Below, in pieces: positions 5,373 to 62,190 of a stretch of 62,190 nucleotides of DNA; within the stretch, counting starts at the first letter, position 1, and the number at the start of each line of letters is the position of its first letter. The notes under the pieces were generated by a model. It was not told the DNA's origin and did no database searches. It saw only the letters and a list, made by a program, of their open reading frames with translations. Location of the stretch: positions 1-62,190 of the IMG/VR virus record IMGVR_UViG_3300031787_000118. The stretch is one strand, 5' to 3'. Source of the DNA: a virus. Lineage: Duplodnaviria; Caudoviricetes. A program made the translations under genes and the position numbers.

Positions 5373-5384
5373 GATTTGTTTTAA

Positions 5385-35760: not shown

Positions 35761-38700
35761 TGGAAAAAAATGTAAATAGACCTCATAAGGGTATGATGCA
35801 GGATATTAATCCTGTTGACCAACCTAAAGAAACATACAGATATGCATTAAATGCTGTCAATGAAAGTAGTGATGGTAATAAAACTATATTACATAATGAA
35901 AAAGCAAATGAAGATTGTTGGTCATTAACTACTGGTTATTACCCAATAGGTAAAGTGTATACTCAAAACAATGAAGTAGTTATCTTTTCTACTAATGGCA
36001 CTAATAGTGAAATAGGTGTAGTTAAAGATTGTAACTATACTACTATAATTAACTCTGAATGTTTAGGATTTGATATTAAGTTTCAAATTGATGCAACATA
36101 CAGAGTTAGAAGAGGATGTGAAACTGTTATATATTTTACAGATAACTATAATCCTGTAAGACAAGTTAACTTAAACAAACTTGAAAACTATTATAGTGAT
36201 GCTTATATAACTTATTTGTCATCAGGTGACATTAACCCATTTGTAGGTGAAAAATGGAATTGTGATTTATTTGCACTTATTCCACCTTATTCTATTCCTT
36301 GTTTTAGTGATGCACAAATAATTACTGGTGGTCAATTAAATGCAGGTTCTTATAACTTTGCAATTCAATATTTAGATGAAGGATTTAATCCTACTCCTTG
36401 GATAATTACATCTCATCCTGTAAACATATATCATGATGATGTTAATGCACCATTTAATAATATAGATGGTTCATCTCAATTAGAAGCTGATGGATTAGGT
36501 GGTGTAGCTAACTCTACTAACAAAGCTATCAAGTTAGAACTTTCTAATTTAGATGATTCATTTACTTATTATAGAATTGCAGTAATTCAAGCTACAGGAT
36601 TTACAAGTAATGTAACTAAAACTGTAGTATCTTCAGAGATTCCAATTACTCAAGATATCTTTATTTATAATGGAGATTTGAATGGTTATACTGAAATATC
36701 TTCACAAGAAATCAAACCTGGAAGAATTGACTTAGAGTATGTTGCACATTTAGAACAATTAGAAAATAGACTTATACTTTTAAACACTAAAGGTAAACAA
36801 GTAAACTTCTGCTCATTTCAAAAGTTTGCATCTAAAATTCATTCTCGTTATGTAGTTAAAGAAGTAGATGCTACTGATATTGATGCTGTTGGTAATCCTA
36901 AAAATCCATTAACTCCATTTGAGTGTATGGGATTTATGGGTGGAGAAGTATATGCTCTTGGAATTGTTTATGTATTTAAAGATGGATTTGAATCTCCTGT
37001 TTATCATATACCTGGTCCATCTGCAAATCAAAGATGGAACTGGACTACAGAACTTTGTGAAGTAGTAGCAGATACTACACCTGTAACTCCTTGGAATTCA
37101 GATATAGAACACTTAGTACCTGCAAGTGATGCAGCAGCTTATAATGCACTTCCACCTGAAGATAAAATACCTAAATGGAGAGTGTATGAAACTGCTATAA
37201 ATGTAAGTGCTACTGAAGGACAAATGGCATATTGGAAATGTTCTAACTCTGTATATGAAGTAAAAGAAAGTTGTGATGGTGAAGATTATTGGGGTCAAGA
37301 TGTTTGTGGAAATGATTTAGTAAATACTTCAATTAGACATCATAGATTTCCTTCAAGAACTTTAGAACCTCATGTAGATAATGATGCTTCAGTACAATCT
37401 TATTATAAGTTAGAAGTAACTGTATCTTTAAAAGATGGACAAGTATGGCCTATAGGTATTCCAAGTATTGATTTAGATATTGACTATGATTATAATGGTG
37501 TACCTCAAACTACTTTTACAAAAACATTTGTTGAAGCTGATTTTGCATCAGGTTCTATTACATTTGTGGTAGATATTCAACCAGGTAATTCTCCTGCTAT
37601 TTTTACCAATGTTGTATTTAGTGGAACATTAGTTACAACATATCCTCTTGTATTTGATATAACTTATACTACTTTATTTGCTTATTCTAACTTTGTTGAT
37701 AATTCAGTAATAAGATTATTAGGTGTTAAGTTTAGTAATGTAGATTACCCTCATCCTGATATTGTAGGTCATTATTTTGTAAGAGCAGAAAGAGATTCTT
37801 TTAATAGAACTATTCTTGATTCAGGTATTGCAGGTAGAGCAAGAAGTAAAAGTACAAATGCATTTGATTATATTACTTTTTCATACTTTACAAATAACAA
37901 TAATGATGCAGAACATCATTATCTTTTTAATCCTAAGTTTCTTTACAATAAAGAAATATTAGTTCCTGATTATTTAAAAGTAGAATCAGAGTTTGATTTT
38001 AAAAATAAAGATTTAGGAAGTGAAAGATATGATGCTGTTGGTACATTTATCATAGATGTAGATACTCTTATAGAACATAGAATACAAAACTATGATGGAC
38101 TTGTATTAACTAATGGAGATAAGAATCATTCTAAAGAAAGAATGTTATCTTCTGATGCTCTGTCTTATGATGATAATTATGAACCTGGAAATAGACAATA
38201 TAATTTATCTCATTCTAATAGAGCACAAATGATTAAATTAGGAAGTTCTTTACCTAAAAATGGTGATGATATTCCTTATGTAACTCTTAGAGTAGATAGA
38301 GATGTGCATTGTAATCTTGATGCAATTAAGTATTATAAGATGCATAACTGTATATTTGAAGGAGATGAAAGAGCTGAAATATTTGGAGGTGATGTAGTCA
38401 TTACACCATTCATGTTAAACAATACGTTAATGAGAGAATTATTTAATTCTCCATTAGCAAGTGTGTTAAGTGCATTACTCATAGTTGGTGCTGCTGTTGC
38501 TACTATATTAACTGCTGGTGCAGCTTCTCCTTTAATTGTAGGAGCTGGTGCTGCATTAGGTGCTACTATATCTGCTACTGCTGCAACAACTGCTGTAGTA
38601 ATTACTGCTATAGTAGCTGCTGCAATTGGAGTAACTGCAACTGCTGTAAGTGCTTTATTCAAAGCTTATGCAGAAACAGATTTAGATGAATTAGCAGAAG

Positions 38701-43111: not shown

Positions 43112-43113
43112 TC

Positions 43114-45521: not shown

Positions 45522-48500
45522 ATGAATCCTGATAACGGCGAACTTGCAAATCAAAATACCAATCCTATTACCTCTCCTTCACAAGAACCATTAACTATAA
45601 ATGTTAATGGTAAAGAAGTTGTTATTAATCCAAACCAAGTAGCTACTGGTATTGTAGAAAATGGAGTATCTAAATCTAAGATGGCAGATGTATCTTGGAG
45701 TACTGGTAGTAAATCTAATGACCAAATTCAATCTGAACTTAAAGGATATGAAGCAAAGTTTGAAAGAGAAAATAAGATAGCAGAAGCTGATGGTGTTTTA
45801 GAAACAGCAGGTAAGTTTACTGAATCATTTTTAACATCAATGGCAGCAGGTATGTGGGATATTGCAAGTGCATTTGATGTGGGAGATTGGAGATTACCTG
45901 AAATGTATGGTGCTGGAACTGCTATGAATTCTGTATTCAAAGCAGTTGACAATACTATTGGTGATGGTGAAAAAGAAGTAGGTAACTGGTTTTCAAGAAG
46001 AGCTGCACTTATCAGAGAAGAGAGTGCTATCAATGATAAGATGAATACAGGTAACTCTTATGTTGATTATGGGTTAGGTATGGTTGCAAATGTAGGTGGT
46101 TCTATTGCAGGTATGGGTGGAGCATTGAAAATGTTAGGTATGGGAATGCATGCTTTAAGAGCAGGTAAAACATTAAATACTATTACAGGTACTGTAGCTG
46201 CTACTTATGGTACTGCATTTTCAATTGCTGAAGGAGTTAAAGATGAAGTTTATCAAAGAACACTTCATGACCTTGCTCCTGATTTAAAATCACTAGAACA
46301 AAATACTCATGGAGAAACTTATAATAAAGCTCTTGATGAAGGTAAGTCAGCAGAAGAAGCAGAGTATTTAGCAAGACAAGCAGTTAAAACTGTAAGGGAT
46401 GAGTATGCAAAATCAAATCCTTTACTTCATGAAGCTGCTATGAGTAGTGCAATGAAAGGTGCTGATGCTGCTATTAAATTTTCTACTATTGGTTTCTTAC
46501 TCAACATGGGTCAAGCTACTCAATTTATTAAAGGACACTATGCTTCAAGAAAAGTATTAGAAAGTGCATCTACATTTTCTACTAAAGAAATATTAAAAGA
46601 AGCAGGTCAAGAAGCTATTGAAGAAGGTATTGTAGAAGGAATAGCTGAAGACTATGGTGTTAACTATGGAATGAAAGGAGAGTATGGAGTTAATGATGCT
46701 CTTAAAAAGATTTGGAGTTTAGAAACTCTTGAGTCTATGGTTATTGGTGGACTTGCAGGTGGAGGTATGGCAGCATTAGCACAATACTCTAACAAGAATA
46801 TTAAAGGTGAAGATGGATTAACACATGCTGAAAGATATCAAAAACAACAAGGTTATATTAAAAAGTGGAATGAGATTGGTGCAACTGTTGGGCAACCTGA
46901 CATGATTGACCAATTAACTACTCTTAATAAAAACTCTCTTGAACTTACAGAAATTGTTAAAGAACAAAAGAAATTAGTAGCTCAAGGAAAAGAAGAAGAA
47001 GCAAAAGCATTAGGTTCTAAGATACTTTCAGTACAAGCATCTCAAGCATTTGCATCAGGCACAACTGCATCACTTATAGAAAACTATGAGAAGATTGCAA
47101 GAGATAGTAGTTTTAAACCTGAAGTAAGACAAAGAGCACAAGAAGCTTTAGTTCAAATTAAAGACATGGAAAAGGTTTATAACAAATCTTTATCTTATTC
47201 TAATGGCTCTGATATTTATTCTAACAGAGTTAATGATTATTCTTTGTCTAAAGCTGAACAAGAACTTAAAAATAAAATTATTGAAAAGAAACTTGAAGCA
47301 AATACTGCAATTGAATCTTCATTGAGAAGTGGAGAAACAAGTTTAAAAGTTAAAGATACTTTAAAGGTAGTTGATGAATACAATCAAAGAGTTGTAGATG
47401 AAGAGGTAGATAGAGATTTGAGTTATAACTTAGATACTTTGTTTGAAAATCCTTATACAAATCAAACTGAAGCTGATGCTTACAGTTCATTTAAAGACTA
47501 TGCTTCTAAAAACATTCAAGCTGTAAGAGAACTATTAGATTTACAAGGTCAACTTAAAACTATTCAACAACATAAAGACGAAAACAATAAAACATATAAT
47601 AAGATAACTTCTAAGCAATTTCAAAGAAGTTTAAAATTCCAAGATTCATTAACTCGTGATATCAGGTCTAATAAAGAAACTATGGATTCTTTTAAAGGTA
47701 CTGATAAGTTTATGCCTTATCTTGATAACATACTTAAAAAGTATAAAGGTAAAATTGATGATTCCACTTTGGAATACATCAAGGATAGGTATGAGTTAGA
47801 AAATGAAGTTACTAAGGAAGCATCTAAAAAAGCACAAACTGAAGCTGTTAGTAAAGCATTAGGTAAGAAGGGGGAAGAGAATAAACAAGTTGCACCTACT
47901 ACTAAGACTGATGATAAACAAACTGTAGAAACTATTGCAACTAAAGTTAATTCAGGAATTGAATTGAGTAAAGATGAAAAAGAATTCTATACTCAATTCC
48001 CAACTCAAATTGATGATAGACTCAAACAATTAAAAACAAGTACTGAAGGGGAAGGTTCTCAATCAGGTACTATGCAAACTAATGAAGATTTAGAAGTTGA
48101 TGGTCAAGACACTCTCAACCCTGAAAGACAATTAGTAGCTACAAAGCTCAACAATATTACAAGTATTGTTGAGGATAGTTTGTTTGAGGAAGAAGCAGAA
48201 ACAGTAGAAACTTTAAGTCCTGCACTTACAAGTAAAGTAGATAAAATTAAATCTGACCCTTCATTTATACAAGATGGAGTATATAAAACATCTGCACTTA
48301 AAAGATTCTTAGGTAAAGATTTTGATACTGTAATGGATTCATTAATGAAAACAGGTACAGTAGAATTTGATGGTACTAATTATGTAGTTGCAGGTAAACA
48401 AACTGCTAAAGTTACACCTAATAACAATGATATTCAAATAGCTAAAATTGAAAGTAGAAGATTAGAAGAATTAAATGCTACTAAAAAAATAGGAGAAGAT

Positions 48501-51500
48501 AATCTTAAAGAAGGTAGAAAACTTACTAAAAAAATAGTTGAATCATTAAAACAAAGGTACCCTGTAACTTCTGCAAAAGGTATTATAATTAGAATTTTAG
48601 AAAAATTAATTGATTTTAACAAATACTCTACAATTGTAGATTCTAAATATATTAATGGTCAAGGAGCAAGTGGTCAAGCTACATGGTTTGGTATGATGAT
48701 TTCTCAAGAAACTCTTGATGGAATTTTAGAAGGTAAGGAACATGAAGTTCACACCTTTATACATGAATTCATACATGGTTTCACTACATCTAAAATATCA
48801 GATTATAATATTGAAAAGCTTGGTTTAATACCTGGTTTTAAATCTAAACTTACAAGTAAAGAAAAAAATGCAATAGAGCAACTTCAAAGAATATTTGAAA
48901 AAGTTAAAAGAGATAATCCTAATCTTAAAGAATATGGATTTACTAATTTAGATGAATTTATTGCAGAAGCATTTAGTAATGAAAGTTTCCAATACACTTT
49001 AAAAAATACAAAATCAGAAGGTAAAAAATCTAATTTATTTGTAGAATTTATAAATGCTATTGGTGATATATTATTTGAACAATTAGAAAGATGGGCTAAA
49101 AGACAAAATAAAGAAATTCCAAATAGAGAAACTATTACAGGAATTTTAGAAGATGTATTAGCTTGGACAGAAGAATTGATTGACCAAAATAATAAACTTG
49201 CTTACATTGGAACTGCTGAAGAAATCAATGCAAAATATGATGCAGAAATAAAAGCATTAGGAAATACTAATCAAAGTACTAAACCCACCACAAAACCAAA
49301 TACAGGATTAAGTGGATTAGCAATATCTATTATTAACTCCCCAAGTTTTCAAGAAACACTTGAAGATAGATATGAGTTAAGAGTAAATTTAGATGATGAT
49401 GCTTTTAGTGATGCAGATGGTAATTTGAATTCAGCAGGTCAAGCACAAGAAGCAGGTTTCAATGAGATTAAAGAAGCAATTGATAAAGGAGAAATTACAG
49501 GTATCAAAGCTATTAGAAGAGGTAACTCTTCTATCATTACTTATGTTAAAACTAATGTTCCTGTAAGTTATGACCCTGATGAAATCTCTTATGAACCTGA
49601 TGAAATTAAAAAAGATTTAAGTGCTGAAGTTAAAGAACAAGTAAGAGAACAAGTTGAATCTTATGTAATTTCATTAGAAGGTGATTTAGGTAGAACTCCT
49701 ACATTTGAAGAGTTTATCAAAGACTATATTAAAAATGGAGGTAGAACAAATACTGATAAGTTATTTAATGTACTTATAAAAGGTTGGGAATTAAATAATT
49801 ATCCTAAATCTGATTACTCTTCTATTTATAATAAATTATTTAAGGATAGAAAACAAATGGCTAATTCATTATTAGAATTAGCTGAACAAGTTATTACACC
49901 TCAAACCAAAGAAGAAATATCTGAACAAATAAAAGAAGAAGCTAAGACTCCAACTCAAGAAAAGAAAGTAATAGCTATTAGTCCTGAAGGTAAAGTTAGA
50001 TATGAACATTTAACTATGACTTCTGAAGATACAAGACCTAAGTTAGGTTACTCTTCAAGAAAAGCTGCTCCTGTATTTTATACTGAACAAGATGGAGATA
50101 TGCAAGTTATTCAAACTGATTTTGAATATACAGAAGAAGGTTTGAGTGAAAGTGATTTGGTTAAAAGTTTAAAACTTCTTAACCCTGATAAATATTTGCC
50201 AGGTGAAGAACTTGAAGTTGTAATTCCAACAGGAGCTACACTAATGAATATGACTATTCCTGTATATAATGATGAAGGAATAAGGGCAGGTGAAACTACA
50301 TTTGGTGAATGGTTAAAAGGAAAGTTGTTAGAAAATCCTGACTTTGAAAGTACTCAAGAATATGAGGATAGAGTACCAATGTTAGTTAAAGATAATGAAG
50401 GTGATTATGTTGCTTATGTACATGAACCTGAATGGTATCATCCTTTAAAGTTTAGAGGTGATGTAAGAGAAGCACAACATAATGCAAGAGTTATTAGAAA
50501 GATGGCAATGAAAGCCAACAAAGAAGGTAACTCTGCTAAATTGAAAATTACTTCTAATCAAGGAGGTATGTTTCAACCTATGATTATTCCTAATACTCAA
50601 CCTTGGGTTAAGTTAAAAGATGCTAATCCACAAGCTAAATCAGGTATTGTTAAAAACAATGAAATACTTATAGATGGAAAACCATTTAAAGGTATTCTTG
50701 TAAATGAAAAAGATTTTTTAACAAATACAAATAACAAACCTGTAGATGTTAGAAGATGGGGAACTGATGAAAATGGTAATCCTACTTATAGAGCATTTCA
50801 ATCTACTATGCAACCTATTGAAAATGAACAAGTTGAAACTGTTTATCAAGCAGTATTAACTTATCTTTTTAATAAATCTTATAGTAAAGAACCTATTGCA
50901 TTAGAATATAAGAAAGTAAAAGATATAGTACAAAATACATTAGGTGCTAACTTTAATCTTGGTGACTATACAAATCTTGATAACTTTTTGAAACTATTCA
51001 TAATGGTTTCAAATAAGAAAATGGATTCAAATTTGACTGAAGCTCAAATTGCAGGAGTAATGAAAGCTGACCCTTATGTAGGAAAAGGATTACCTTATAT
51101 TTTTACTTATCAAGGAGGAAATGTAGTATTTGGTGTAGGTGGAGAAGCTACTGCATATAAAATAGCTCCTTCAGATTTGAAAAATGGAATAAGTGGACAA
51201 GTTCAATCTAAGTTAGATGAATTAAAAAGAATACTTCCAATGTTTAATCAAAACATTGGAATGATAGGTGGTGCAACTTATAATGGGAAAGTATTACATA
51301 TTGACAATAAAGGTAATGTAAATACTGTTAGTCCTACTTACTCTAAATACATTGGTGATAAATACTACACTAATGTAATGTCACATAATATTGGTACTGA
51401 TGACAAACCTAACTATGTTACAAGAATTCAACCTTCTATTTATTTTGAACCTACAGGTGAATTAAGTAGAAAGAAAGAAGCTGTAATTGCAAGTAAAGAA

Positions 51501-54500
51501 GAAGTAACTGAAACTAAAAAACAACAAGTAACTAATACTGTTGAAGTGTTAGAAAATGTTGAATTAGAAGAAGTTGTAACTAAGTTAGAAGAGAAAGATT
51601 GGAAGTTTGCAGGAGATACATTAGAAGAAAAAGTAGAAGACTTAAAAGAATTGTTATCTACTCAAAATCAAGAAGCTGTTGAAATTGTAGAAACTATAAA
51701 GCAGGATGATGACTATCATAGAACTATCAAGAAAGCATATAACCAAGTAAAATGGGTAGATGAATATTTTGATAACTCTGATGATTTATCTTATGAACCT
51801 GTAGAAATTCAAACAGAAGAAGTTAAGGAAATGACTAAGGATTTATTTAAAATCCCTGGATTATCTCCTAACCACCAATCACAACTTGTTGATTTTGTTT
51901 TCAATAGTGCATCACAAGAATTTTCATTTGACTATGAAGAAGCTGTTGATAAAGATAAACTTAAATCAGGTGTTACTAAAAAGTTATTTGCAAGTTTAGA
52001 TGCAAATCTTCAAAACTTAAATTCTACTTTAGAGGAATTAAGAAAGTTAGAAAGTAATAATGTAGTTGATTCTCTTATTAAGAAATATGAAACTGCTATT
52101 GATAAGATTAATTTAGTTAAAGATAACTCTGATATTATTGCAGAAGAAGGTTTAAATAAACTATTCAAATATGCAAACATCAAAGTAACTGAAATTAAAA
52201 ATGAAGAAGGTGATGTAGTACAAGTAGTTGAAGAAGGAACAGATTCTAATACTGATAATGAAAAAGAAACTAATGAAGATGAAAACTCTGCATTATCATT
52301 TGATGAAGTATCTACAGAAAGAGAAGATAACTATTCTCAAACATCTTTAGAAAAGAATCCTAAGAATAGTGTAACTAAAGAACTTAGATTGTTTATGTCT
52401 GCTGTTGAAGACATAAACCCTAAAACCCAACTCCCAAATACAGGAGTTATGGGAGTGCCCCTCTATGTAGGATTTGATTCAGTTTATGATACTGTACAAA
52501 GTTTCTTAGCTGATTCTCCTTCTGACTTTAATACAATGGTTGGTATTTTAGAATTACATAAAGATTCTCATGCTTGGATGCCTACATTAATTGAAAGGTT
52601 AAAGAATGCAGATAATCAAGTTAAGAAACAGTTTGTACTTACAATGGGTACCCATGCTCTTAAAATGGAATTCTTAATGTACTCTTTCAATACTAAAGAT
52701 GGTACATATTCTTTGAAAGTAATGGACACTAACAGTTCTGCTATTACTAAGAAGATTGAACAAATGTGGAAAAATAACTTACTCTCTTCCTCTATTGTAA
52801 CAATGGAAGATGGTCAGTATGTTACTAATGTTGAAGTAGCTAAAGAACTTTATAACCAATATAACTCTTGGGTAGAATCTCCTGAAAAACTAAAAAGTAA
52901 ATATAACAGCCTTTTACCTTTATTTAAAGGTAAGGTTAAGAAAGGTGAAACCACTACAATAACTTTCAGTGAACATTCTGCAATAGATAAGAAGTATGTT
53001 GCTACAGGAATATTAAAAGACATTGAGGGTGGTAGGTTAATAACTATTAACCAAGAAGAATATGTTATCTCTAAATCAGGTGATAACCAAATAACTATTA
53101 AACCATTTGAAAGAAGTGTAGTAGGTAAAGCTATTTCTAAATACCAATCTCTTACACCTGAAGAACAAGCTTCTGCAATTGAAGAAGTACAAGTTTGGTT
53201 TAATAACTTTGGAATTGAATTAGCTGATAATGCTATTGACCACATATTTAGAAATGGATTATATACTAACAATGGTGCATTGAGTGTTAGTCAATTCTTT
53301 GAAGAAAGTAGTGCAACAAGTTCTCCTATGGGAATCTTAGCATCATGGTTAAATGGTGTAGTTTCAGGTAACATTGGTACAGATATATTTGATGAAAATA
53401 ATGAAAAGAATAATCCTTTAAGAGATTATTCAATTGAAAAAACATTAACTAAACATCAAAGTAAATATACTAAAGCAATTGTAACTAATTCATTTAGAGA
53501 TGGTAAGAAATCTATATTTGGATTTACTGCTACTAAATTTATTACTGATAGATTCCAAGATTTAAAAACTAATGAAGAACTTCGAGGACAGTTAGGTTCT
53601 TTATCATTCTCTAAACATTCTATGTGGTTAGAGTTTATGGGTACTGAACTCTTAAATAAGTTTAACTTATCACATCTTGGATTAACTGCAATTGCAGAGT
53701 TTGGTAAAAAGAATTATAAGGATAATAGTATCACAAGTTTAAGTGATGCAGACCATGAACTTATTAAGATAGGTATGTTTCAAGATGTAAAACAAGGAGC
53801 TACATCTAAAACTTATGGTAGTATGAATATTGGTTTAAGAGTTGCAAAGTTCTTATTCCCTACAATGTCTGATAAAACTACAATGACTGTAGTTCAAACT
53901 CCTGTAATTGATTTAACTGAAACAAGATTGTACTTAGATAATGCAGAAACATTACAAGAACCTGTACTTAATATTGTATTTCAACAAACTGTATTACCTG
54001 AAATTGAAAGGATTATTAACTTTAAAAATAATGTAAAGAAAACTAATATCAAAAGTTATGATGATGGTGCTAAGATGTTAAGCTTTATGCCATTCTTAAA
54101 TGACTTAGAAATTAAATTGAATGAACAAGTAACAGTTTCCTTGAGAGATTTACTCTTAATGGAAGAAACAACTGTTGAAGATATTTTATCACAAAAGGTT
54201 AGAAATCAAATCATGGGTGAAATTCAAAACTATTTGAATAAACTTATGAATGATAAAGTAGAAGTATGGAAAAACAATGGATATATAGTTGAGGAAGAAG
54301 GAGTTAAGAAGATTAAATTTATGGATGGAAAGTATCTATCTAAAATTGAAACTGATAACTTTGATGAAAAAATGAAAATAGCTGCTTATGATTTTGTAGT
54401 AAACAATGTTATAAGTAATGCTAATGCTTTTATGACTATCATTGGTGACCCTGCATTATATTATAAATCTAATACTTCTAAAGATTTTATAGCTCAAAGT

Positions 54501-57500
54501 GAAGAAACTTTTATCAATGTTGGTAAGAGGTTAGCTGCTATGATAGCACCTGGTTCTAAAATAGCAGATTCACAAAATGAACAATACTTACAAGTGTTCT
54601 TAAAAGATAAAGTATCTTTATCTGAAAACATTGATTTCTTATGTAAGCTTTTAGATGGTAAAGCATTTGACACAAATGAATACAACAGAGTAATGTCATT
54701 ACCTGAAAAGGGTGAATCTGAATTACAATCTAAGAAACTACAAGTAGAAAAGAAAAGACAAATAGATGCATTTTATAATCAATATCCTAACTCAAATGGT
54801 TACTTTGACATAGAAGGAACTGATGCTCAAGAATATACTACTTGGCAAGAACACTTACACATTTTAGAACAAATGGGTAGAGTAAGTGATAATGCTGCTT
54901 CTATTACTCCTGATGAAATAAGAGAAGCTAAAGAAATGTTTGCAAGTGGAATCAGTATTGATAACATGAGTTCTGCACAAAAAGAAGTGTTGAAGAAAGT
55001 ACTTCAACCTATTAAACCTGTATATACAGGACAGATATATGATGCTGACCAAGATGTTATGAGAATGATGTACATTAAAAGTTCATCATTCCCTCTTATT
55101 CCACAATTAACTGAAGGGTTAGAAATCAATAAGTTAAGAGTTGGATTAGAGAAAATGCAAGAAACTACTGGTAAAAAAGTAAGAGCATCTTATCAAACTG
55201 CAAATAAAGTTGGAGCATTAACTACTCCTCTAAGTCTTTTTAATGCTGATGGTAGTATTAAAGAAATTACAGAAGATAACCTTAAAGCTTCAACACTTAC
55301 TCTTAATAGAAAAGATTTTAAAATTCAGTTAGATGTACCTTTTAAATCTCTTAAAAGAAATGAAGACACTGTTACTTTAGGTACTCAGTTAACTAAACTT
55401 CTTTTTGGTAATGGTATCATGGATGAAGTTGGATTCATGTTAGATGGTAAACCACTTTCAGGTAAAGCACTTGAAAAAGAATATACTGATACATTTATTC
55501 AATTAGCTAATCTTAAAAAGAAAAAACTATATAATGAATTAGGAATTGATGAGTTAACAGGAGAACCTATTGACTTACAAAAAACTGCAATTAAACTTCA
55601 AAAGCTACTCAAGGATGAAGCTATAAGTAAAGGTTACTCTAAGCAAGATATTGAAGCTTTAGAGTTAGAACCTGTATATAGTGGTGGTAAACTGATAGAT
55701 ATTAAATTTAAAATGCCTTTGTGGGTATCTGCAAATGCTAACAGATTTGAATCTTTACTCAATGCTATTGTTACTAACAGACTTGTTAAGATGAAGTTTC
55801 CTGGTAATTCTTATGTAGTTGGTTCAGAAGAAGGATTTAGATTTCAAGATAACTTAGAAGGAGTAGATAAAAATAAAATTGTATGGACTAATAAATGGAC
55901 AGGTAAATTACAAGCAGCTAAATATGATGCTAAAGGTAATTTAATGTACACTCAAGTATTGGCACCATCTAAGTTTAGAGATGCAAAAGGTAAGTTAATT
56001 GACTTACTTGCTAAGGATAAAGATGGTACATATAAATATGTAACTCAAACAGGTAAAGGATTTATCATAAAGAATGATAAGTTCTCTGAAGAGTTATTGT
56101 CTATAACTTCTTTTAGGATTCCAACATCAGGTCACGTATCTGCATCTCAAATTGAGATTGTAGGTTTCTTACCTCAAGAAGTTGGTGACTTGATGATTGT
56201 ACCAAGAAACTTAACTAAACAAAAAGGTCTTGACTTTGACATTGATAAAGAAAACACTTATCAATTATGGCACATTGAAACTGAAAATGGATTTAGACCT
56301 CTTCAGGAAGGTGATGATGTACCTAACATTAAAGAGAAACTATTACAAAATAAACTTGTAAACATTCATAAGTCTGTTTTATCTAATCCTTCCACTAATG
56401 TTCAAAAGAAAATCAATGGTATTCTTTCTATTAAATTTGCTCAAGACCAATCAGAAATGATTAATGAATGGGTTGAAGGAAATAAAGATAAAAAGTATTT
56501 TACTCCACTTAGTGATGAATACCAAAAATCTAAAATGTTTTTGGGAGCAAGTGGTAAAGTAGGTACAGGTGCATATTCTTTAGATGTAACTTCACATTCA
56601 TTATTTGAACAAGCTAAAGCTAAAGGTACTCCTTTAAGATTGATTGATGAAAATACTTTCATTATGAGTTTTGGAGATAAGTACAAATCAACAGGAGAAT
56701 TGGGAGAATCTAAAACTATTGATGGTGATAGAAAAATAGCTGAAGTATTAGCTGAAAGACAAAACATTGCAGTAGATAATGAGAAAGAACAAGTAATGGG
56801 TAAAGTTAATCTTAATGGTTTAACTTTAGATGTAGATAAGGTATTGTGCATGTTAGGATTTGATAAAGGAGAAGATGGTAATTCTATTCCTTTCCTGTTC
56901 TTATCTCAACCTATTCTTAAAGATTATGTTGCTGAAATGTCTAATGCTTCTGCTAACATTGCAGAATTTTCAAAAGATAAAGAATCTAAAGTTATTCAAA
57001 AACTATTAGAAAAATATGGAGTAGAAGATTTTGAAATGGGATTAGAAACTGATAAAGAGTTTGGTGAAATGATGACCAATATTAAAATGGCATCTGAAAT
57101 TCAAAACAAACCTGATGGAATGTTTCAAGCTGCAATACTTAATAGATTTTTGTTATTAAAGAAATATGGTGCAGAGATTAGAGGTGTACAATCTACAATC
57201 AATATTGACTCAGCAGGTTTAGGTAAATCTGTTGCAGAGAATGCTGAAAAGATGAATACTGTATCTCGTTTATTTAGTAATACAACTATTGAAAATGCAG
57301 GAGCATTATTAGGTCAATCAGTAAGTGAAGAAGATATTACTGCATCTGAAAGACAAGAACTTATCTCTAAAGGTTATGTTCCTTTTATGGGTTTGTTAGT
57401 TAAACCTACAACCATTAACGGTATCTTTACCATTAATGCCTTAACTACTGCTGATAAGTTATGGACTAAACATTTCCCTTATCAAACAAGTGTTATGAAT

Positions 57501-60500
57501 ACCTTGTTTAGTGAGATTATGCCATTGATTTCTAATTCAGAATCTTCTGATGCTAAGAAAGCAGAGAAAAGACAAATTGTAATGAAAGAAGTTAAGAAGT
57601 ATCTTAATACTGTCATGGCTTCTAAAACTATATTTGAAAATACATCTGCACAAGAAGAAAGAAAAAGACTGTTTATTGATAATGATGCTACTAACCATCA
57701 ATCTTTAGCTACTTATCTTAGAGATGCTATTAAACTTCCTGTACTTAATAACAATAAACTGTTACAAAGATTTGAATTTGAAGTAAATAAAGATGGTAAA
57801 CCATCTATCATTAAGTATAACAATGCAGCAGGGGCTTCATTTGATGAAGATTACCTTAATAATGCACTTCTTGAATTAATGGAAAGAAATGTACCTATTT
57901 CATCTTTTAATGGTGAAATATATACAACAAGAAAATTAGCTCAAGACCTTATCACTTATTCTCTGTTAGAGGGTGGAGTACAAGAAGCAATTCAGTTTGC
58001 TAAATTTATTCCTTTAAGATACTTAGATAAGTTAGGGTTTACAACTGCAATGTCTTCTGTAGATTTTAATACTGCAAACAGAACATTTGGTATTAACTTA
58101 TCAGATAAGAAAGAACCTTGGGATGTAAGTACATTTACTATTCAGTTTGCACAAAACAATCCAAGAACTCTTCCTAAATTAGAAAACATTACAAATAAGA
58201 AACCTGAAGAATTAGTGAAGATGGATACATTTAATTTAAGTGCAATCTCTGATGCTCCAGGTGCTAACTTCTTTTCATTAAGACATGATGGTAAATTCCA
58301 TTTATGGCAAAGAGTTGCTAATGATACCTACATCAAAATACCTGTTGTTGGTACTCATGGTATGTCTGAATACAATAATGAAAGAGGAGCAGTTGAAACT
58401 GTTATTAAACCATTAGTTGAAAAAGATAAATCTAAAAAAGGAAATGAACCTAAAGGTGAAACTAAGTTTATAAAACAACAATTGTTTGGAATTGAAGTAG
58501 AACCTACAATGACTGTTTTAAACAATATCATTAAGGATTCAAGTACACCTAATGATGTTAAAGTAATAATGGAAAAGTTATTAGGTGACTTTGACCAAAC
58601 TGTAAAGATTGTAGTAAAAGAAATAAAAGGTAGAGGAGCTTATGATTCTAATACAAATACTATCTTTATTCATCCTGAATATTTAGCTACTGCTTCTAAA
58701 GAAGAATTATCTCGTACTGTTTTAAAAGAAATGGTTCACTCTATTACAGATAAAGAGTTACTTAAATATGCAGATAGAGATGGTAACTTAATTATTGAAG
58801 ATGCACCTAAACACATTGTAGCTTTAACTCAATTGTTTAAAAGAACTAAGGAAATACTTGGTGAAGATAGAATCAATGAAGTAAAGGAAAAGTTCAAAAG
58901 AGATAAAGGATTAGAACCTATTGAAAAAAGAGTAATTTATGGTGGTACAAACTTGTTAGAATTTGTTGAGATGATTATGACTCAACCTGAATTCCAACAA
59001 GAAATGGCTAAACATAAAATGGCTAATGGTAAATCATTACTTGATAAATTTATTGAGTTTGTTTCTAATTTATTAACTGTATTAAATGTACCTTCTGATA
59101 GTATTACATCTGAAGCATTGAATAACATTTTTAACATGATTCAAAAACCTGTTGAAAGTAAAGTTGAATCAACATCAAATTTCAAATTTGCTCAGTTTAG
59201 TGAATTTGAAACAACAGCAGAATTCACAGGTGAACAATATGCAGATGATATGGCATCTCCAGGTGATGTAGTTATTTATAAAAATCAAGAATATTTAGTA
59301 TTAGGATTGTCAGATAATGGAGGTTTAAGACTTATGGATTTTGATGGAAATAAGTTTTCAGGCACACCTCAACCTGATAAAATTGATAAACTTGTAGCAA
59401 TGTTTGACACTATAAAGTTTGAAAATACTGATTATATTGTACTTGATAAAGATAACATTGTATCTACTGCTACAGGTAAAAAAGTATTTACTTCTAATGA
59501 TAACTCTACTGTCACAAGAAAAAGAAAATTGTTAGAACTATTTAATGAAGAAGTTGGATTTTACCCAAGTGTTGAAACTCAAGAATCTAAAACATCTAAT
59601 GCTTTTAAATCATTTACAAAAGATTTATTCTTAGAACTTGATGCAAAAATAAATGAAGATTATGGAAGTGTAAGAGTTACAACTCCAAACATTGCTAAGT
59701 TTCAACAATATCCTTTAATTCAAAAATACTTTAATGCAGGATATGATGTAAGTGTAGATGAATATAACTTCATACAACAAAATACTGAAGAGTTTAATAC
59801 TTTACTTCAAGAGTTAGGTGTATCTGATGTAGTTGAATTAACTGATAAGTTAAAAGATATGAAAGTAGAATCATCAACTCCAACAGTAGAAATTAAACAA
59901 GAAACTAATGTAGAAGAAAAATTAATTGAAAAAGTAGAATCATTAGAAGGTATGAAAAAGTATGAATTATTCCCTGGAGTATTTGCTAATAAAGAACAAA
60001 CAGAAGCAATTGATAAATTAGATGAATTTGTTAAATCTCCTAAATCAGGTTCATTTGTTTTAATTGGTAGAGGTGGTACAGGTAAAACTACTATTGTTAA
60101 AAAGGTTTTAGAAATGAATCCTAATGCAAGAATAGTTGGTGGTACTATGGGTCACAATGCAAAACAAATATTGCAAGAATCTTTAGGTAATAAAGCTAAG
60201 GCATACACAACTGCATCATTAACTGGTAAAAGAGAAGATTTTCAAAATCCTGGTAAGTATATTCAAGATAAGAACTTTGACCCTAACAAATCTCCATTAA
60301 AATATGCTGATGTATTTATCTTAGATGAAACTTCAATGATTGATGAAACAATGATGAAAGAACTTTATGATATTGCAGGAGTTAATACTAAATTTATTTT
60401 CATGGGAGATAATGTACAATTACCACCTATAAGAGAAAAAGGTTCTAAGTTTGAAGGTCAAGATTCTCCTACATTTAAAGAAGGTAAAGGTAACAACTTT

Positions 60501-62190
60501 GCTAAACTTACTCAAAGAATGCGTCAAGGTGAAGATTCTCCTATAGTTGGATTGAGTGATATTATAGCTACAAATGTAGAAAGTGAAAATGTAGAAAGAA
60601 GAGTTATTAAGAATAGAAAAACTAATTTCAATCCTTCCACTAATAAAGGTGTAATCTTTACTACTGAAAAAGATATGTTGTCTGAACTTGAAAAAGATAT
60701 TAAGTCTGATGTTTATAATACTAAAGCTGTAGTATTCACTAATGCTAAACGTGACCAAGTAACAAAAACTATTAGGCAAATGTTATGGGGTAAAGCTGCT
60801 GAAAATGAGTACAATGTAGGTGAAGTTATCATGTCTGTTGATAATAAAAAGATTGGTGGATTAAACCCTGCTGAAATCTTCAATGGAGAATTTTACATTG
60901 TTACAAATGTAGTTACTAAAAATAATGCTTTAAGAATTGAAACATTTAATAATGGTAGAATAGAATCTGAAAACATTGCAGGTTATGTATTAACAGTTCA
61001 AAAGAAAGATGGAACAAAAATGAATATAACTGTTCCTTCAACTTCTGAAAAAGAAAGAATTGCTAAATTACAAAATACATTAGCTAATGCTGCTAAATCA
61101 GGATTAGCTCCTTGGCAATATTTTTGGAATAATAAAGAAGCTATTATTGCTGTTGAATATGGTTATGCTATTACATCACATAAATCTCAAGGTTCTACTT
61201 TTAATAACACTTATGTTTTTGAAGATGATATTTTAGGAGTTACTGCTGCATCTAATAAAACTGTAAATCAATCTTTGTATGTAGCTTTAACAAGACCAAG
61301 AAACAAAGCTGTAATTATTTCAAGGGAAAATGAAAATAATGACATACCTGAAATTACAGGTGATGAAGAAATCTTATTATCATTAGAGCCTAATGAAGTA
61401 ACTCTTGCATTAAAAGAAAAAATTAATAAGTTATTTAAAGAAAATCCTTCCTTATCAAAAATTGGTTCTGTTGAGCAATACAGTAATTATTTGAATACTA
61501 TTTTTCCTAACAGTAAAGTAAAAGATATTTTATATCATGGTACTCCTGATGGAAGATTTGAATCTTTTGACATATCATTTGCAGGTAAAGCAACAGTAAA
61601 TGTAACTAAAGGAATTTACTTAACTGATAGTAAAAAAACTGCTGATTTTTATGCAGAAGGGCACATTGATTTTAGTGAATTTGAATCTCGTGAAGAATAT
61701 GAAGAAGTGAAAACTGCTAAAACATTTTCAATGATAATAAATGCTGAAAATCTTAAATTTGTAAATGACCCTCAAGCACAACAAAAACAAGGAAATGCAA
61801 TTTTAAGAACTGAAGAAAAATTATCAGACATTGGGTATGTATCTAATATTCCTGATTTAGCTCATCAATATATTGTTTTTGACCCTGAACAAATTCACAT
61901 TTTAGGAGAAAATAAAGATATTGAACAATTTAAAAATTATGTAAATTCCCAATTATCTTATGAACCTAATGAAATAGTTTCTCCAACAGTTGAATCTAAA
62001 GCAGGATTTAGAAATACAGATGGTAGTAGAAAAAGATATTTAAAAGAAGAAATGGCTTTTAACAAAGCTAAAGAGTACAATAAGAAAAATACTGAATACA
62101 AAGCATCTGTAATTAAAGTAATGGGTGAAAAAGGAGATTCAAGAGTTTATTATGCTGTTAGTTTACAAGTTAGACCATTAGCATCTGCAA
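45522..62190 (+). CDS. Giant virion RNA polymerase polyprotein (over 5,500 aa, 3'-truncated): zincin, RNAP, degenerate zincin, SF1 helicase, ART-like domain
   Basis: ATG at 45522. The same frame holds at every point checked up to the window end, and the track lists no plus-strand fragment here, consistent with no stop. Motifs: HEFIH 48762-48776; FRIPTSGH about 56112; GLDFDIDK 56226-56249; KEMVH 58725-58739; GRGGTGKT 60066-60089; YHGT 61533-61544. Confidence 0.92.
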   Translation, partial: MNPDNGELANQNTNPITSPSQEPLTINVNGKEVVINPNQVATGIVENGVSKSKMADVSWSTGSKSNDQIQSELKGYEAKFERENKIAEADGVLETAGKFTESFLTSMAAGMWDIASAFDVGDWRLPEMYGAGTAMNSVFKAVDNTIGDGEKEVGNWFSRRAALIREESAINDKMNTGNSYVDYGLGMVANVGGSIAGMGGALKMLGMGMHALRAGKTLNTITGTVAATYGTAFSIAEGVKDEVYQRTLHDLAPDLKSLEQNTHGETYNKALDEGKSAEEAEYLARQAVKTVRDEYAKSNPLLHEAAMSSAMKGADAAIKFSTIGFLLNMGQATQFIKGHYASRKVLESASTFSTKEILKEAGQEAIEEGIVEGIAEDYGVNYGMKGEYGVNDALKKIWSLETLESMVIGGLAGGGMAALAQYSNKNIKGEDGLTHAERYQKQQGYIKKWNEIGATVGQPDMIDQLTTLNKNSLELTEIVKEQKKLVAQGKEEEAKALGSKILSVQASQAFASGTTASLIENYEKIARDSSFKPEVRQRAQEALVQIKDMEKVYNKSLSYSNGSDIYSNRVNDYSLSKAEQELKNKIIEKKLEANTAIESSLRSGETSLKVKDTLKVVDEYNQRVVDEEVDRDLSYNLDTLFENPYTNQTEADAYSSFKDYASKNIQAVRELLDLQGQLKTIQQHKDENNKTYNKITSKQFQRSLKFQDSLTRDIRSNKETMDSFKGTDKFMPYLDNILKKYKGKIDDSTLEYIKDRYELENEVTKEASKKAQTEAVSKALGKKGEENKQVAPTTKTDDKQTVETIATKVNSGIELSKDEKEFYTQFPTQIDDRLKQLKTSTEGEGSQSGTMQTNEDLEVDGQDTLNPERQLVATKLNNITSIVEDSLFEEEAETVETLSPALTSKVDKIKSDPSFIQDGVYKTSALKRFLGKDFDTVMDSLMKTGTVEFDGTNYVVAGKQTAKVTPNNNDIQIAKIESRRLEELNATKKIGEDNLKEGRKLTKKIVESLKQRYPVTSAKGIIIRILEKLIDFNKYSTIVDSKYINGQGASGQATWFGMMISQETLDGILEGKEHEVHTFIHEFIHGFTTSKISDYNIEKLGLIPGFKSKLTSKEKNAIEQLQRIFEKVKRDNPNLKEYGFTNLDEFIAEAFSNESFQYTLKNTKSEGKKSNLFVEFINAIGDILFEQLERWAKRQNKEIPNRETITGILEDVLAWTEELIDQNNKLAYIGTAEEINAKYDAEIKALGNTNQSTKPTTKPNTGLSGLAISIINSPSFQETLEDRYELRVNLDDDAFSDADGNLNSAGQAQEAGFNEIKEAIDKGEITGIKAIRRGNSSIITYVKTNVPVSYDPDEISYEPDEIKKDLSAEVKEQVREQVESYVISLEGDLGRTPTFEEFIKDYIKNGGRTNTDKLFNVLIKGWELNNYPKSDYSSIYNKLFKDRKQMANSLLELAEQVITPQTKEEISEQIKEEAKTPTQEKKVIAISPEGKVRYEHLTMTSEDTRPKLGYSSRKAAPVFYTEQDGDMQVIQTDFEYTEEGLSESDLVKSLKLLNPDKYLPGEELEVVIPTGATLMNMTIPVYNDEGIRAGETTFGEWLKGKLLENPDFESTQEYEDRVPMLVKDNEGDYVAYVHEPEWYHPLKFRGDVREAQHNARVIRKMAMKANKEGNSAKLKITSNQGGMFQPMIIPNTQPWVKLKDANPQAKSGIVKNNEILIDGKPFKGILVNEKDFLTNTNNKPVDVRRWGTDENGNPTYRAFQSTMQPIENEQVETVYQAVLTYLFNKSYSKEPIALEYKKVKDIVQNTLGANFNLGDYTNLDNFLKLFIMVSNKKMDSNLTEAQIAGVMKADPYVGKGLPYIFTYQGGNVVFGVGGEATAYKIAPSDLKNGISGQVQSKLDELKRILPMFNQNIGMIGGATYNGKVLHIDNKGNVNTVSPTYSKYIGDKYYTNVMSHNIGTDDKPNYVTRIQPSIYFEPTGELSRKKEAVIASKEEVTETKKQQVTNTVEVLENVELEEVVTKLEEKDWKFAGDTLEEKVEDLKELLSTQNQEAVEIVETIKQDDDYHRTIKKAYNQVKWVDEYFDNSDDLSYEPVEIQTEEVKEMTKDLFKIPGLSPNHQSQLVDFVFNSASQEFSFDYEEAVDKDKLKSGVTKKLFASLDANLQNLNSTLEELRKLESNNVVDSLIKKYETAIDKINLVKDNSDIIAEEGLNKLFKYANIKVTEIKNEEGDVVQVVEEGTDSNTDNEKETNEDENSALSFDEVSTEREDNYSQTSLEKNPKNSVTKELRLFMSAVEDINPKTQLPNTGVMGVPLYVGFDSVYDTVQSFLADSPSDFNTMVGILELHKDSHAWMPTLIERLKNADNQVKKQFVLTMGTHALKMEFLMYSFNTKDGTYSLKVMDTNSSAITKKIEQMWKNNLLSSSIVTMEDGQYVTNVEVAKELYNQYNSWVESPEKLKSKYNSLLPLFKGKVKKGETTTITFSEHSAIDKKYVATGILKDIEGGRLITINQEEYVISKSGDNQITIKPFERSVVGKAISKYQSLTPEEQASAIEEVQVWFNNFGIELADNAIDHIFRNGLYTNNGALSVSQFFEESSATSSPMGILASWLNGVVSGNIGTDIFDENNEKNNPLRDYSIEKTLTKHQSKYTKAIVTNSFRDGKKSIFGFTATKFITDRFQDLKTNEELRGQLGSLSFSKHSMWLEFMGTELLNKFNLSHLGLTAIAEFGKKNYKDNSITSLSDADHELIKIGMFQDVKQGATSKTYGSMNIGLRVAKFLFPTMSDKTTMTVVQTPVIDLTETRLYLDNAETLQEPVLNIVFQQTVLPEIERIINFKNNVKKTNIKSYDDGAKMLSFMPFLNDLEIKLNEQVTVSLRDLLLMEETTVEDILSQKVRNQIMGEIQNYLNKLMNDKVEVWKNNGYIVEEEGVKKIKFMDGKYLSKIETDNFDEKMKIAAYDFVVNNVISNANAFMTIIGDPALYYKSNTSKDFIAQSEETFINVGKRLAAMIAPGSKIADSQNEQYLQVFLKDKVSLSENIDFLCKLLDGKAFDTNEYNRVMSLPEKGESELQSKKLQVEKKRQIDAFYNQYPNSNGYFDIEGTDAQEYTTWQEHLHILEQMGRVSDNAASITPDEIREAKEMFASGISIDNMSSAQKEVLKKVLQPIKPVYTGQIYDADQDVMRMMYIKSSSFPLIPQLTEGLEINKLRVGLEKMQETTGKKVRASYQTANKVGALTTPLSLFNADGSIKEITEDNLKASTLTLNRKDFKIQLDVPFKSLKRNEDTVTLGTQLTKLLFGNGIMDEVGFMLDGKPLSGKALEKEYTDTFIQLANLKKKKLYNELGIDELTGEPIDLQKTAIKLQKLLKDEAISKGYSKQDIEALELEPVYSGGKLIDIKFKMPLWVSANANRFESLLNAIVTNRLVKMKFPGNSYVVGSEEGFRFQDNLEGVDKNKIVWTNKWTGKLQAAKYDAKGNLMYTQVLAPSKFRDAKGKLIDLLAKDKDGTYKYVTQTGKGFIIKNDKFSEELLSITSFRIPTSGHVSASQIEIVGFLPQEVGDLMIVPRNLTKQKGLDFDIDKENTYQLWHIETENGFRPLQEGDDVPNIKEKLLQNKLVNIHKSVLSNPSTNVQKKINGILSIKFAQDQSEMINEWVEGNKDKKYFTPLSDEYQKSKMFLGASGKVGTGAYSLDVTSHSLFEQAKAKGTPLRLIDENTFIMSFGDKYKSTGELGESKTIDGDRKIAEVLAERQNIAVDNEKEQVMGKVNLNGLTLDVDKVLCMLGFDKGEDGNSIPFLFLSQPILKDYVAEMSNASANIAEFSKDKESKVIQKLLEKYGVEDFEMGLETDKEFGEMMTNIKMASEIQNKPDGMFQAAILNRFLLLKKYGAEIRGVQSTINIDSAGLGKSVAENAEKMNTVSRLFSNTTIENAGALLGQSVSEEDITASERQELISKGYVPFMGLLVKPTTINGIFTINALTTADKLWTKHFPYQTSVMNTLFSEIMPLISNSESSDAKKAEKRQIVMKEVKKYLNTVMASKTIFENTSAQEERKRLFIDNDATNHQSLATYLRDAIKLPVLNNNKLLQRFEFEVNKDGKPSIIKYNNAAGASFDEDYLNNALLELMERNVPISSFNGEIYTTRKLAQDLITYSLLEGGVQEAIQFAKFIPLRYLDKLGFTTAMSSVDFNTANRTFGINLSDKKEPWDVSTFTIQFAQNNPRTLPKLENITNKKPEELVKMDTFNLSAISDAPGANFFSLRHDGKFHLWQRVANDTYIKIPVVGTHGMSEYNNERGAVETVIKPLVEKDKSKKGNEPKGETKFIKQQLFGIEVEPTMTVLNNIIKDSSTPNDVKVIMEKLLGDFDQTVKIVVKEIKGRGAYDSNTNTIFIHPEYLATASKEELSRTVLKEMVHSITDKELLKYADRDGNLIIEDAPKHIVALTQLFKRTKEILGEDRINEVKEKFKRDKGLEPIEKRVIYGGTNLLEFVEMIMTQPEFQQEMAKHKMANGKSLLDKFIEFVSNLLTVLNVPSDSITSEALNNIFNMIQKPVESKVESTSNFKFAQFSEFETTAEFTGEQYADDMASPGDVVIYKNQEYLVLGLSDNGGLRLMDFDGNKFSGTPQPDKIDKLVAMFDTIKFENTDYIVLDKDNIVSTATGKKVFTSNDNSTVTRKRKLLELFNEEVGFYPSVETQESKTSNAFKSFTKDLFLELDAKINEDYGSVRVTTPNIAKFQQYPLIQKYFNAGYDVSVDEYNFIQQNTEEFNTLLQELGVSDVVELTDKLKDMKVESSTPTVEIKQETNVEEKLIEKVESLEGMKKYELFPGVFANKEQTEAIDKLDEFVKSPKSGSFVLIGRGGTGKTTIVKKVLEMNPNARIVGGTMGHNAKQILQESLGNKAKAYTTASLTGKREDFQNPGKYIQDKNFDPNKSPLKYADVFILDETSMIDETMMKELYDIAGVNTKFIFMGDNVQLPPIREKGSKFEGQDSPTFKEGKGNNFAKLTQRMRQGEDSPIVGLSDIIATNVESENVERRVIKNRKTNFNPSTNKGVIFTTEKDMLSELEKDIKSDVYNTKAVVFTNAKRDQVTKTIRQMLWGKAAENEYNVGEVIMSVDNKKIGGLNPAEIFNGEFYIVTNVVTKNNALRIETFNNGRIESENIAGYVLTVQKKDGTKMNITVPSTSEKERIAKLQNTLANAAKSGLAPWQYFWNNKEAIIAVEYGYAITSHKSQGSTFNNTYVFEDDILGVTAASNKTVNQSLYVALTRPRNKAVIISRENENNDIPEITGDEEILLSLEPNEVTLALKEKINKLFKENPSLSKIGSVEQYSNYLNTIFPNSKVKDILYHGTPDGRFESFDISFAGKATVNVTKGIYLTDSKKTADFYAEGHIDFSEFESREEYEEVKTAKTFSMIINAENLKFVNDPQAQQKQGNAILRTEEKLSDIGYVSNIPDLAHQYIVFDPEQIHILGENKDIEQFKNYVNSQLSYEPNEIVSPTVESKAGFRNTDGSRKRYLKEEMAFNKAKEYNKKNTEYKASVIKVMGEKGDSRVYYAVSLQVRPLASA

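Follow-up and report, generated by a model that had tools for sequence, protein, structure and literature searches.

The 62,190-nucleotide viral contig IMGVR_UViG_3300031787_000118 (Duplodnaviria; Caudoviricetes), analysed over its whole length and called here the window, raises the question of what is encoded by a single giant gene at 45522-62189 (+) that combines RNA polymerase, protease-like, helicase and ADP-ribosyltransferase (ART) modules, and of what becomes of its product. The gene very probably specifies a fused crassvirus virion cargo block, a late protein of 5,832 amino acids that would be packaged and ejected with the DNA into a Bacteroidota host. crAss-like phages are among the most abundant known.

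The frame begins with ATG and runs through 5,556 codons without a stop, its 3' end being open (open reading frame (ORF) listing with open ends, and translation). Because the window is an entire contig, with a CheckV completeness of 66%, the gene is truncated at its 3' end by assembly and not by biology. Protein P0002 is identical to the window frame over 5,556 of 5,556 residues and carries 276 more, giving 5,832 in total, and a 99.98% identical copy of the same length (P0124) lies on an 88,451-base contig. A preliminary description of this DNA had proposed a single stop-free frame, still open at the window end and overlooked by the accompanying ORF list. All of this holds, and the omission has a simple cause: the default list drops frames that leave the source sequence. 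An artefact in which several genes were joined by assembly error or by a recoded stop has a negligible probability. Not one stop of any kind occurs in 5,556 codons whose G+C content is about 30% (that of the AT-rich window being 27-35%), the presence of identical or 99.98% identical 5,832-residue proteins on other contigs argues that the frame is no assembly accident, and related loci carry frames of 5,148-6,241 residues. The same description had made five domain assignments, each of which was recovered here with independent tools. The features of the gene are as follows, with residues numbered along the protein.

45522-62189 (+): giant ORF, first 5,556 of 5,832 codons; the contig end cuts its 3' end
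45699-48041 (+): block I (residues ~60-840), Gly/Ala-rich amphipathic segments; from the conservation profile of 13 homologues
48519-49271 (+): Z1, intact zincin-like module in a variable slot (residues ~840-1340); HEFIH at 1081, EF..E at 1145-1149
49587-49604 (+): junction peptide A, SYEPDE, residues 1356-1361; strict motif in 10 of 13 homologues, [E/Q]-P in 13 of 13
49659-51788 (+): block II (residues 1380-2089), conserved; colinear with FpV4 gp32 residues 1119-1683
51789-51806 (+): junction peptide B, SYEPVE, residues 2090-2095; strict motif in 12 of 13; about where phi14:2 gp66 would begin
51819-58421 (+): gp66-type virion RNA polymerase region; BLAST-aligned core, residues 2626-3842, at 53397-57047; DFDID at 56232-56246
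58509-59201 (+): Z2, degenerate zincin-like module adjoining the polymerase; KEMVH at 4402, LEFVEM at 4479
59769-61361 (+): Dda/RecD-like superfamily 1 (SF1) helicase (residues ~4750-5280); Pfam, PHROG and T4 Dda matches
61380-61397 (+): junction peptide C, SLEPNE, residues 5287-5292, between helicase and ART
61527-61901 (+): ART-PolyVal domain (H5339, Y5366, E5456); Pfam PF18760, homologue alignment and AlphaFold2 (AF2) model
61956-61973 (+): junction peptide D, SYEPNE, residues 5479-5484; strict motif in 10 of 13 at this seam
61974-62189 (+): start of the last module, which in P0002, past the window, holds a third zincin (HEILH at 5668) and a C-terminal peptide ending in Cys-Asn

This layout was read from an alignment of 13 full-length homologues sharing 42-48% identity (A1), with conservation taken in 60-residue bins. 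Conserved block I is followed by a poorly conserved slot, occupied here by Z1, and then by conserved block II. The best-conserved block (residues 2100-4560) comprises the polymerase and Z2; after a short variable stretch (4560-4690) come the helicase (4690-5280) and a second slot (5280-5810) that contains here the ART, seam D and then the zincin Z3. The last ~18 residues form a conserved C-terminal peptide. Seams A, B, C and D thus begin at 1356, 2090, 5287 and 5479 in this scheme.

By homology, the central module is a virion RNA polymerase of the phi14:2 gp66 type. The link was made by pairwise BLASTP and phmmer against seven sequences: BLASTP aligns residues 2626-3842 with gp66 residues 499-1684 (E 2.6e-28), phmmer gives E 5.3e-17, and a weak additional phmmer stretch pairs P0002 2275-2425 with gp66 224-377. 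The core motifs proposed earlier, TDAQEY (residue 3100), RIPTSG (3532) and DFDID (3571), are each aligned with gp66, where they face TDAQAW, RIPNQG and DFDID. This last motif (3571-3575) agrees with the catalytic DFDxD of gp66-type polymerases, which have Ile or Val at the fourth place, and D3571, F3572, D3573 and D3575 are invariant in the 13 homologues. Polymerases of this type carry two double-psi beta-barrels on one chain, a QDE-1-like fold that is predicted for the window enzyme. The family phrog_16227 ('virion structural protein') covers residues ~1305-4575, with E 4.6e-239 for the central third. According to its GenBank record, gp66 was found in virions by tandem mass spectrometry (MS/MS). 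It transcribes early genes and is active on single-stranded or denatured DNA and poorly so on duplex, as stated in the available text of Drobysheva et al. (bioRxiv 10.1101/2020.03.07.982082), where the fused forms of some phages are described as a 'single huge polyprotein, which is likely cleaved'. As far as the accessible parts of the literature go, virion presence and rifampicin-resistant early transcription are known only for the phi14:2 and crAss001 polymerases.

The SF1 helicase motifs noticed in the preliminary description are present, with Walker A (GRGGTGKT) at 4849, DETSM at 4935 and others at 4962, 5218 and 5253. The set includes Walker A, DExx, GDxxQLPP, QG and ALTR, and the helicase module is, judged by its motifs, intact. 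Pfam scores lie above their cut-offs for AAA_30 (63.2 bits against 27), AAA_19 (51.2 against 25.1) and UvrD_C_2 (29.9 against 27.4), and PIF1 also passes; phrog_325, a Dda-like helicase family, is matched at E 2.5e-70 and T4 Dda (3upu) at E 2.3e-13. For the SH3 insertion of Dda-type enzymes, SH3_14 scores 18 bits, its cut-off being 25. PF13604 has a single match, the fused helicase, in each of three relatives (completeness 92%, 100% and 100%). Two separate matches to this family occur in FpV4, where the fusion is missing, and crAssphage LMMB has a stand-alone SF1 helicase, 26% identical, in its replication module. At locus L016 (FpV4 record 78721-82143), the match between a Dda-like helicase and that of the window is broken into two same-strand segments separated by some 1.2 kb; an inserted element may have interrupted the gene.

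The ART-like domain proposed near the end of the frame corresponds to ART-PolyVal at residues 5336-5460 (PF18760, 33.7 bits against a cut-off of 31.2, E 7.2e-8). It has 57 small homologues, many of which are precomputed as PF18760. In an alignment of the window ART with 31 small relatives and one locus copy (A4, 33 sequences), H5339 is invariant, E5456-Q5457 is found in at least 90% and the Tyr of GxYF belongs to the consensus. The Glu is replaced, and the Gln kept, in two of six giant-protein copies. The AF2 model has a predicted local distance difference test (pLDDT) score of 86.3. This C-terminal add-on is predicted to be an H-Y-E ADP-ribosyltransferase.

The protein contains three zincin-like modules. 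In the first, HEFIH (1081) and DEFIAEAF (1144) occur as previously read. Z1 (residues 1001-1250) has 155 relatives at E <=0.001 in a representative library of 1.84 billion proteins; in an alignment of Z1 with 26 of the 150 listed relatives, picked for shortness (A2), the family keeps HExxH and the EF..E helix, E1145 being invariant and E1149 present in at least 90%. A Pfam scan of 25 Z1 homologues left 19 without a family and gave LPD39 in three and ART-PolyVal in one, both of them polyvalent-protein domains; the others had sub-threshold matches to SprT-like, DUF6782 and KaiA. Pfam zincin families reached only sub-threshold scores (E 0.019-0.27). Against PDB sequences, the A2 profile matches the tetrameric ejection protein gp48 of PhiM1 (E 1.9e-12), another internal virion protein (2.9e-12), a 'gp10' chain (2.4e-8), residues 2153-2268 of the N4 virion RNA polymerase (~2e-6) and anthrax lethal factor (3.8e-6). 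A zincin link between the N4 enzyme and lethal factor had already been reported for N4 in the available text of Iyer et al. (2017, PMC5512222). The AF2 model of Z1 is also similar to 8vb2_A (VIA wide search: Z 10.5, root-mean-square deviation 3.1 Å over 152 residues; next row 5.3). On profile evidence, then, the Z modules are related to peptidases of the anthrax lethal factor type, the ejection proteins of podophages and the virion RNA polymerase of N4. The words metallo, peptidase and protease have no occurrence in the PhiM1 gp48 paper.

The second zincin-like domain of the preliminary description was likewise found, with KEMVH at 4402 and LEFVEM at 4479, but the first zinc-binding His is a Lys. 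Z2 is homologous to the Z1 family (hhalign of A2 against A3, probability 98.9%, E 2.8e-17) and lacks HExxH, whereas Z1 and Z3 have HExxH and the downstream Glu. The Lys is shared by the window and its relatives L004, L005 and L008, the more distant L011 keeping HEIIH, and the word KExxHSIT occurs in 9 of 13 A1 members. A strict regular expression for the zincin pair missed Z2 and was not used. Z3, which lies beyond the window in P0002, has HEILH at 5668 and DEFIVG at 5713, and the homologous module of L004 matches A2 by hhalign (97.8%, E 1.1e-12). Homologue P0003 has an insertion of ~150 residues at about 1800-1970, with an HExxH of its own (HEKAH), directly before seam B.

The N-terminal part is less informative. 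The Gly/Ala-rich hydrophobic segments attributed to it are present (residues ~95-135, 180-235 and 400-420), but their hydrophobicity is only moderate: in block I, one 19-residue window (402-420) has a Kyte-Doolittle value of at least 1.2. No Pfam family was found for block I, and the protein atlas gives only viral hypothetical clusters for it and no usable match for block II. A Pfam scan of residues 1-3800 yielded nothing better than 0.06, and a phmmer search of residues 1-2000 against PDB sequences yielded nothing.

The distribution of the fusion was surveyed among proteins of 3,055-9,723 residues, scored on residues 4700-5556; there were 177 matches among 1,051 candidates, the best 120 of which were listed. 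Among these listed matches, 119 besides P0002, 115 have a DFDxD-type motif, 112 match the polymerase region by BLASTP, and only five cover the whole ART. Relatives carry alternative modules in the same slots and sometimes elsewhere, namely NADAR, AlkB-like, SLOG, LPD23, DUF7831 and DUF6782; as compared across these proteins, the gene has swappable module slots. Proteins P0064-P0121, from contigs of ~100 kb, form a tight group of polymerase-helicase giants of 5,650-6,350 residues with DUF7831, NADAR and PF08902. They have 17-24 cysteines yet end in ...DDCNK, and their genome type was not found among GenBank phages.

No fused relative was detected among 50,697 GenBank phage records by tblastn with two queries, the helicase-ART part and the P0147 helicase region, which returned stand-alone helicases only, at no more than 29% identity. 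Megablast of 52000-62190 against GenBank phages gave no match, and a related-locus pattern search with the helicase-ART part gave four matches, none of them a relative. The closest cultured phages are the FpV4-group phages of Flavobacterium psychrophilum, with ~33% identity over 96% of a 2,100-residue query. A fused crAss virion-polymerase polyprotein with a zincin has already been published, to judge from the available text of Drobysheva et al. (bioRxiv 10.1101/2020.03.07.982082) and, for N4-type RNA polymerases, of Iyer et al. (2017). A search of published text found no account of crAss polymerases bearing helicase or ART add-ons, although domain drawings in figures (e.g. Fig. 3, PMC7886860) may already show some of this. 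What distinguishes the window copy is its rich set of add-ons together with a seam peptide of its own. New for this lineage are the junction peptide, the swappable slots, the presence of a sole Dda-like helicase in three complete or near-complete relatives, and the C-terminal cysteine.

The seams are marked by short peptides of the form S-x-[E/Q]-P-x-E. P0002 has four, against 0.136 expected, and none of 2,000 shuffles reaches four; the 11,036 residues of the window's other 27 ORFs have none. In the best 120 of the 177 giants, the motif occurs 52 times where 10.1 would be expected, and 100 of these proteins lack it. On these counts it belongs to this clade alone. The giant gene of L004 stops 13 residues past such a seam motif, and the next gene encodes a Z3-like module and the conserved C-terminal peptide. 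Splits just after the seam motif were observed at L004:18240-18330 and L008:16740-16840, where the giant ORF ends in ...TNECGI and the next one starts with M-S-C; the latter encodes a Z3-like or ART-like module followed by the conserved C-terminal peptide ending in K-C-D. A general head protease was considered as the seam cutter and is not favoured, because the motif is missing from the other 27 ORFs of the window.

A second recurrent signature is a cysteine at the very end of the chain. P0002 has three cysteines in 5,832 residues, one of them at 5831, which, like the following gene, falls past the end of the window. Among the best 120 of the 177 giants, 115 have a cysteine in their last five residues, as do 43 of 48 distinct tails, the overall cysteine frequency being 0.22%; many giants contain no more than one or two, located at their ends. 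The gene that follows the giant starts with M-[A/G/S]-C in L004, L005, L008, L011, phi14:2 and FpV4. In crAss001, gp47 has a single cysteine at 2339 of 2,341 residues, gp50 has cysteines at 5 and 2404, and gp49 has a single one at 5; a Carjivirus also fits the rule. That the terminal cysteine is a by-product of overlapping gene junctions was rejected, since crAss001 gp47 and gp50 fit the rule on opposite strands. Past the add-on modules, conservation extends to the extreme C-terminal peptide with its cysteine, an argument for the entire chain being treated as a single cargo unit. The crAss001 virion commonly contains disulfides (available text of PMC10172136), and a tail-to-head disulfide between gp27 Cys1715 and gp26 Cys5 has been solved in cyanopodophage A4 (available text of PMC12002296). 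No published account of terminal cysteines in these cargo proteins was found in the text searched.

The position of the gene is that of a late virion gene. A replication part on the (-) strand includes a DNA polymerase at 196-2157, and coding strand and GC skew switch at ~10000, between the (-) replication genes and the late operon. The latter, on the (+) strand, comprises terminase, portal, major head protein, several crass-type PHROGs, the muzzle gene, two further genes and the giant gene. An exonuclease-like gene (32848-33564; phrog_298, 2.9e-27) lies within the structural operon, between tail-region genes. The genes directly upstream of the giant gene are:

35760-45480 (+): muzzle gene (35760-40511) and two genes for proteins of 866 and 788 residues; Pfam crAss_MUZ, PHROGs and cysteine counts

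The muzzle gene matches Pfam crAss_MUZ at E 7.9e-43 and its product has 22 cysteines. The proteins encoded at 40511-43111 (866 residues) and 43114-45480 (788 residues) have none and are cargo-like by position only, their slot being that of crAss001 gp45 and gp46. The order is the same in crAss001 (gp44 muzzle, gp45, gp46, gp47), and in phi14:2 and FpV4, too, the muzzle and cargo genes come first and the polymerase gene closes the structural module. Mass spectrometry detected crAss001 gp47, gp49 and gp50 in virions, as reported in the available text of PMC10172136.

What is established comprises the open frame, its homologies and intact motifs, the position of the gene, and the slots and seams of the modules; we infer packaging and injection of the giant protein. 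In the mechanism that can be proposed, the giant chain would be packed in the capsid and ejected with the DNA into a Bacteroidota host. From N to C, its modules are the N-terminal region, Z1 slot, block II, gp66-type polymerase, degenerate zincin, Dda-type helicase, ART, third zincin and cysteine peptide. The polymerase would transcribe early genes, and the helicase could open the incoming duplex for an enzyme whose homologue prefers single-stranded templates. The S-x-[E/Q]-P-x-E peptides may be where the chain is cut or handled, the ART may modify a host target, and the terminal cysteine may tie the chain to the next cargo protein. The most complete version, in which the injected chain is a self-sufficient starter whose sole Dda-type helicase melts the entering duplex and would thereby let such a polymerase start on double-stranded phage DNA, whose zincin cuts at the lineage-private seams and whose last cysteine tethers everything as one thread, is quite unlikely to hold in all its parts.

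Several results weigh against this mechanism or parts of it. A phmmer search of residues 1801-4800 against PDB sequences did not return gp66. The Foldseek rows of the ART are all PARP/tankyrase ART domains but weak (E 1.4e-3 to 6.8e-3, TM-score about 0.4). The AF2 model of Z1 has a pLDDT of 76.8, its confident part is all-helical and the zincin beta-sheet is not seen, and Foldseek of this model against the PDB gave no match (best E 0.22). The zincin module that is universally kept, Z2, has Lys for the first His wherever it was aligned in close relatives. Since any HExxH is present in the giant protein in only 5 of 13 homologues, and at least one seam motif in 13 of 13, a zincin as the seam cutter is unsupported across the clade; an alternative role for the junction peptide would be that of a tag for docking or packaging. 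The N4 virion RNA polymerase, which has such a zincin, is packaged unprocessed (available text of Iyer et al. 2017). Finally, with the window amounting to 66% of the genome, a second helicase is possible in this phage.

These observations bear on three other accounts of the protein. It is possible, although somewhat unlikely, that the chain remains uncut, functioning as a single multi-domain protein or in attachment to its neighbours, the seam peptides being flexible linkers or packaging and docking tags. The unprocessed N4 enzyme with its homologous zincin, as described by Iyer et al. (2017), fits this account, as do the 8 of 13 homologues whose giant protein contains seam motifs and lacks HExxH. 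Moreover, the motif is retained near the ends of split proteins and not replaced by the gene boundary; in P0009-P0011 and P0014 it is found at residues 68-69 and ~16-21 residues from the C-terminus. However, the motif is confined to module seams and absent from all other proteins of the window, and protease modules adjoin seams in relatives, as does the HExxH insertion of P0003 just before seam B. Cleavage of the fused forms is also what Drobysheva et al. expect in the available text. An action of the zincins on the host envelope at ejection, on peptidoglycan peptides or envelope proteins and not on the polyprotein, appears unlikely. The family is also represented in the tetrameric, T7-gp16-like ejection protein of PhiM1 and in a further internal virion protein, peptidoglycan digestion is named as an alternative role in the available text of Drobysheva et al., and a metallopeptidase domain is present in gp28, an ejection protein of A4 (available text of PMC12002296). 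Nevertheless, the PhiM1 paper makes no mention of a peptidase, and envelope and polyprotein roles are not mutually exclusive.

It is distinctly improbable that delivery excludes the helicase, ART and C-terminal modules, these being released in the producing cell, or in the case of the helicase used for replication, and fused for co-expression only. Such a role would agree with the fused enzyme being the only Dda-like (PF13604) helicase in the three complete or near-complete relatives, and with the 26%-identical stand-alone SF1 helicase that crAssphage has in its replication module. However, a place in the late-expressed structural operon is wrong for a replication helicase, and the terminal cysteine, found in 115 of the 120 listed giants, and the extreme C-terminal peptide are conserved beyond the add-ons. 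Furthermore, delivered polyvalent proteins characteristically contain ART-PolyVal and zincins of this family, according to the available text of Iyer et al. (2017). A packaged and ejected cargo block remains the favoured interpretation of the gene.

Within this cargo interpretation, the basic picture is unchanged from that already published, and the gene offers handles on how a packaged polymerase is activated and gains access to its template in crAss-like phages. These are a helicase covalently joined to the polymerase, seam peptides as candidate cleavage sites, a single chain in which one protease family is present in both intact and degenerate form, and a predicted H-Y-E ADP-ribosyltransferase. 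The 'polyvalent protein' design described for N4-type polymerases thereby extends to the unrelated two-barrel crAss polymerase, with swappable slots.

Among known systems, the g067-g066-g065 block of phi14:2 resembles the window gene in its homologous polymerase, whose DFDID, RIPTSG-like and TDAQ motifs align, and in a gp65-like zincin, Z1, Z2 and Z3 all weakly matching gp65 residues 173-390 (E 6e-5 to 2e-3, against the same seven sequences). It also closes the structural operon and shows the terminal-cysteine pattern. In contrast, what is one chain here is three genes there, the window protein has three zincin copies, one of them degenerate, as well as the added Dda-type helicase and ART-PolyVal, and it has no detectable similarity to gp67. 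In FpV4 (Fipvunavirus), gp32, a 'virion structural protein' of 4,287 residues, belongs to the same PHROG, phrog_16227, and is colinear with window residues 1389-4574 at 25-38% identity (37.8% in the polymerase region). However, gp32 stops where the helicase part of the window protein starts, gp33 is unrelated to the C-terminal part of the window protein, and the PF13604 matches of FpV4 are separate and elsewhere in its genome.

PhiM1 gp48 (PDB 8VB2, T7 gp16-like) is matched by Z1 both by profile (1.9e-12) and by fold (Z 10.5); unlike the window protein, gp48 and A4 gp27/gp26 are ejectosome channel proteins without polymerase, helicase or ART. The A4 gp27-gp26 disulfide is the only direct precedent seen for the terminal-cysteine pattern read from crassvirus sequences. 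The polyvalent proteins, including N4-like virion RNA polymerases, are also giant, virion-associated proteins with a zincin hub, ART and other enzymes, according to the available text of Iyer et al. (2017), in which 'crAss' has no occurrence. The window protein shows their features, with several unrelated enzyme domains, a late virion gene and a zincin hub; it differs from the N4-type proteins in its polymerase, which is presumably of the two-barrel crAss type and not of the T7-like N4 type.

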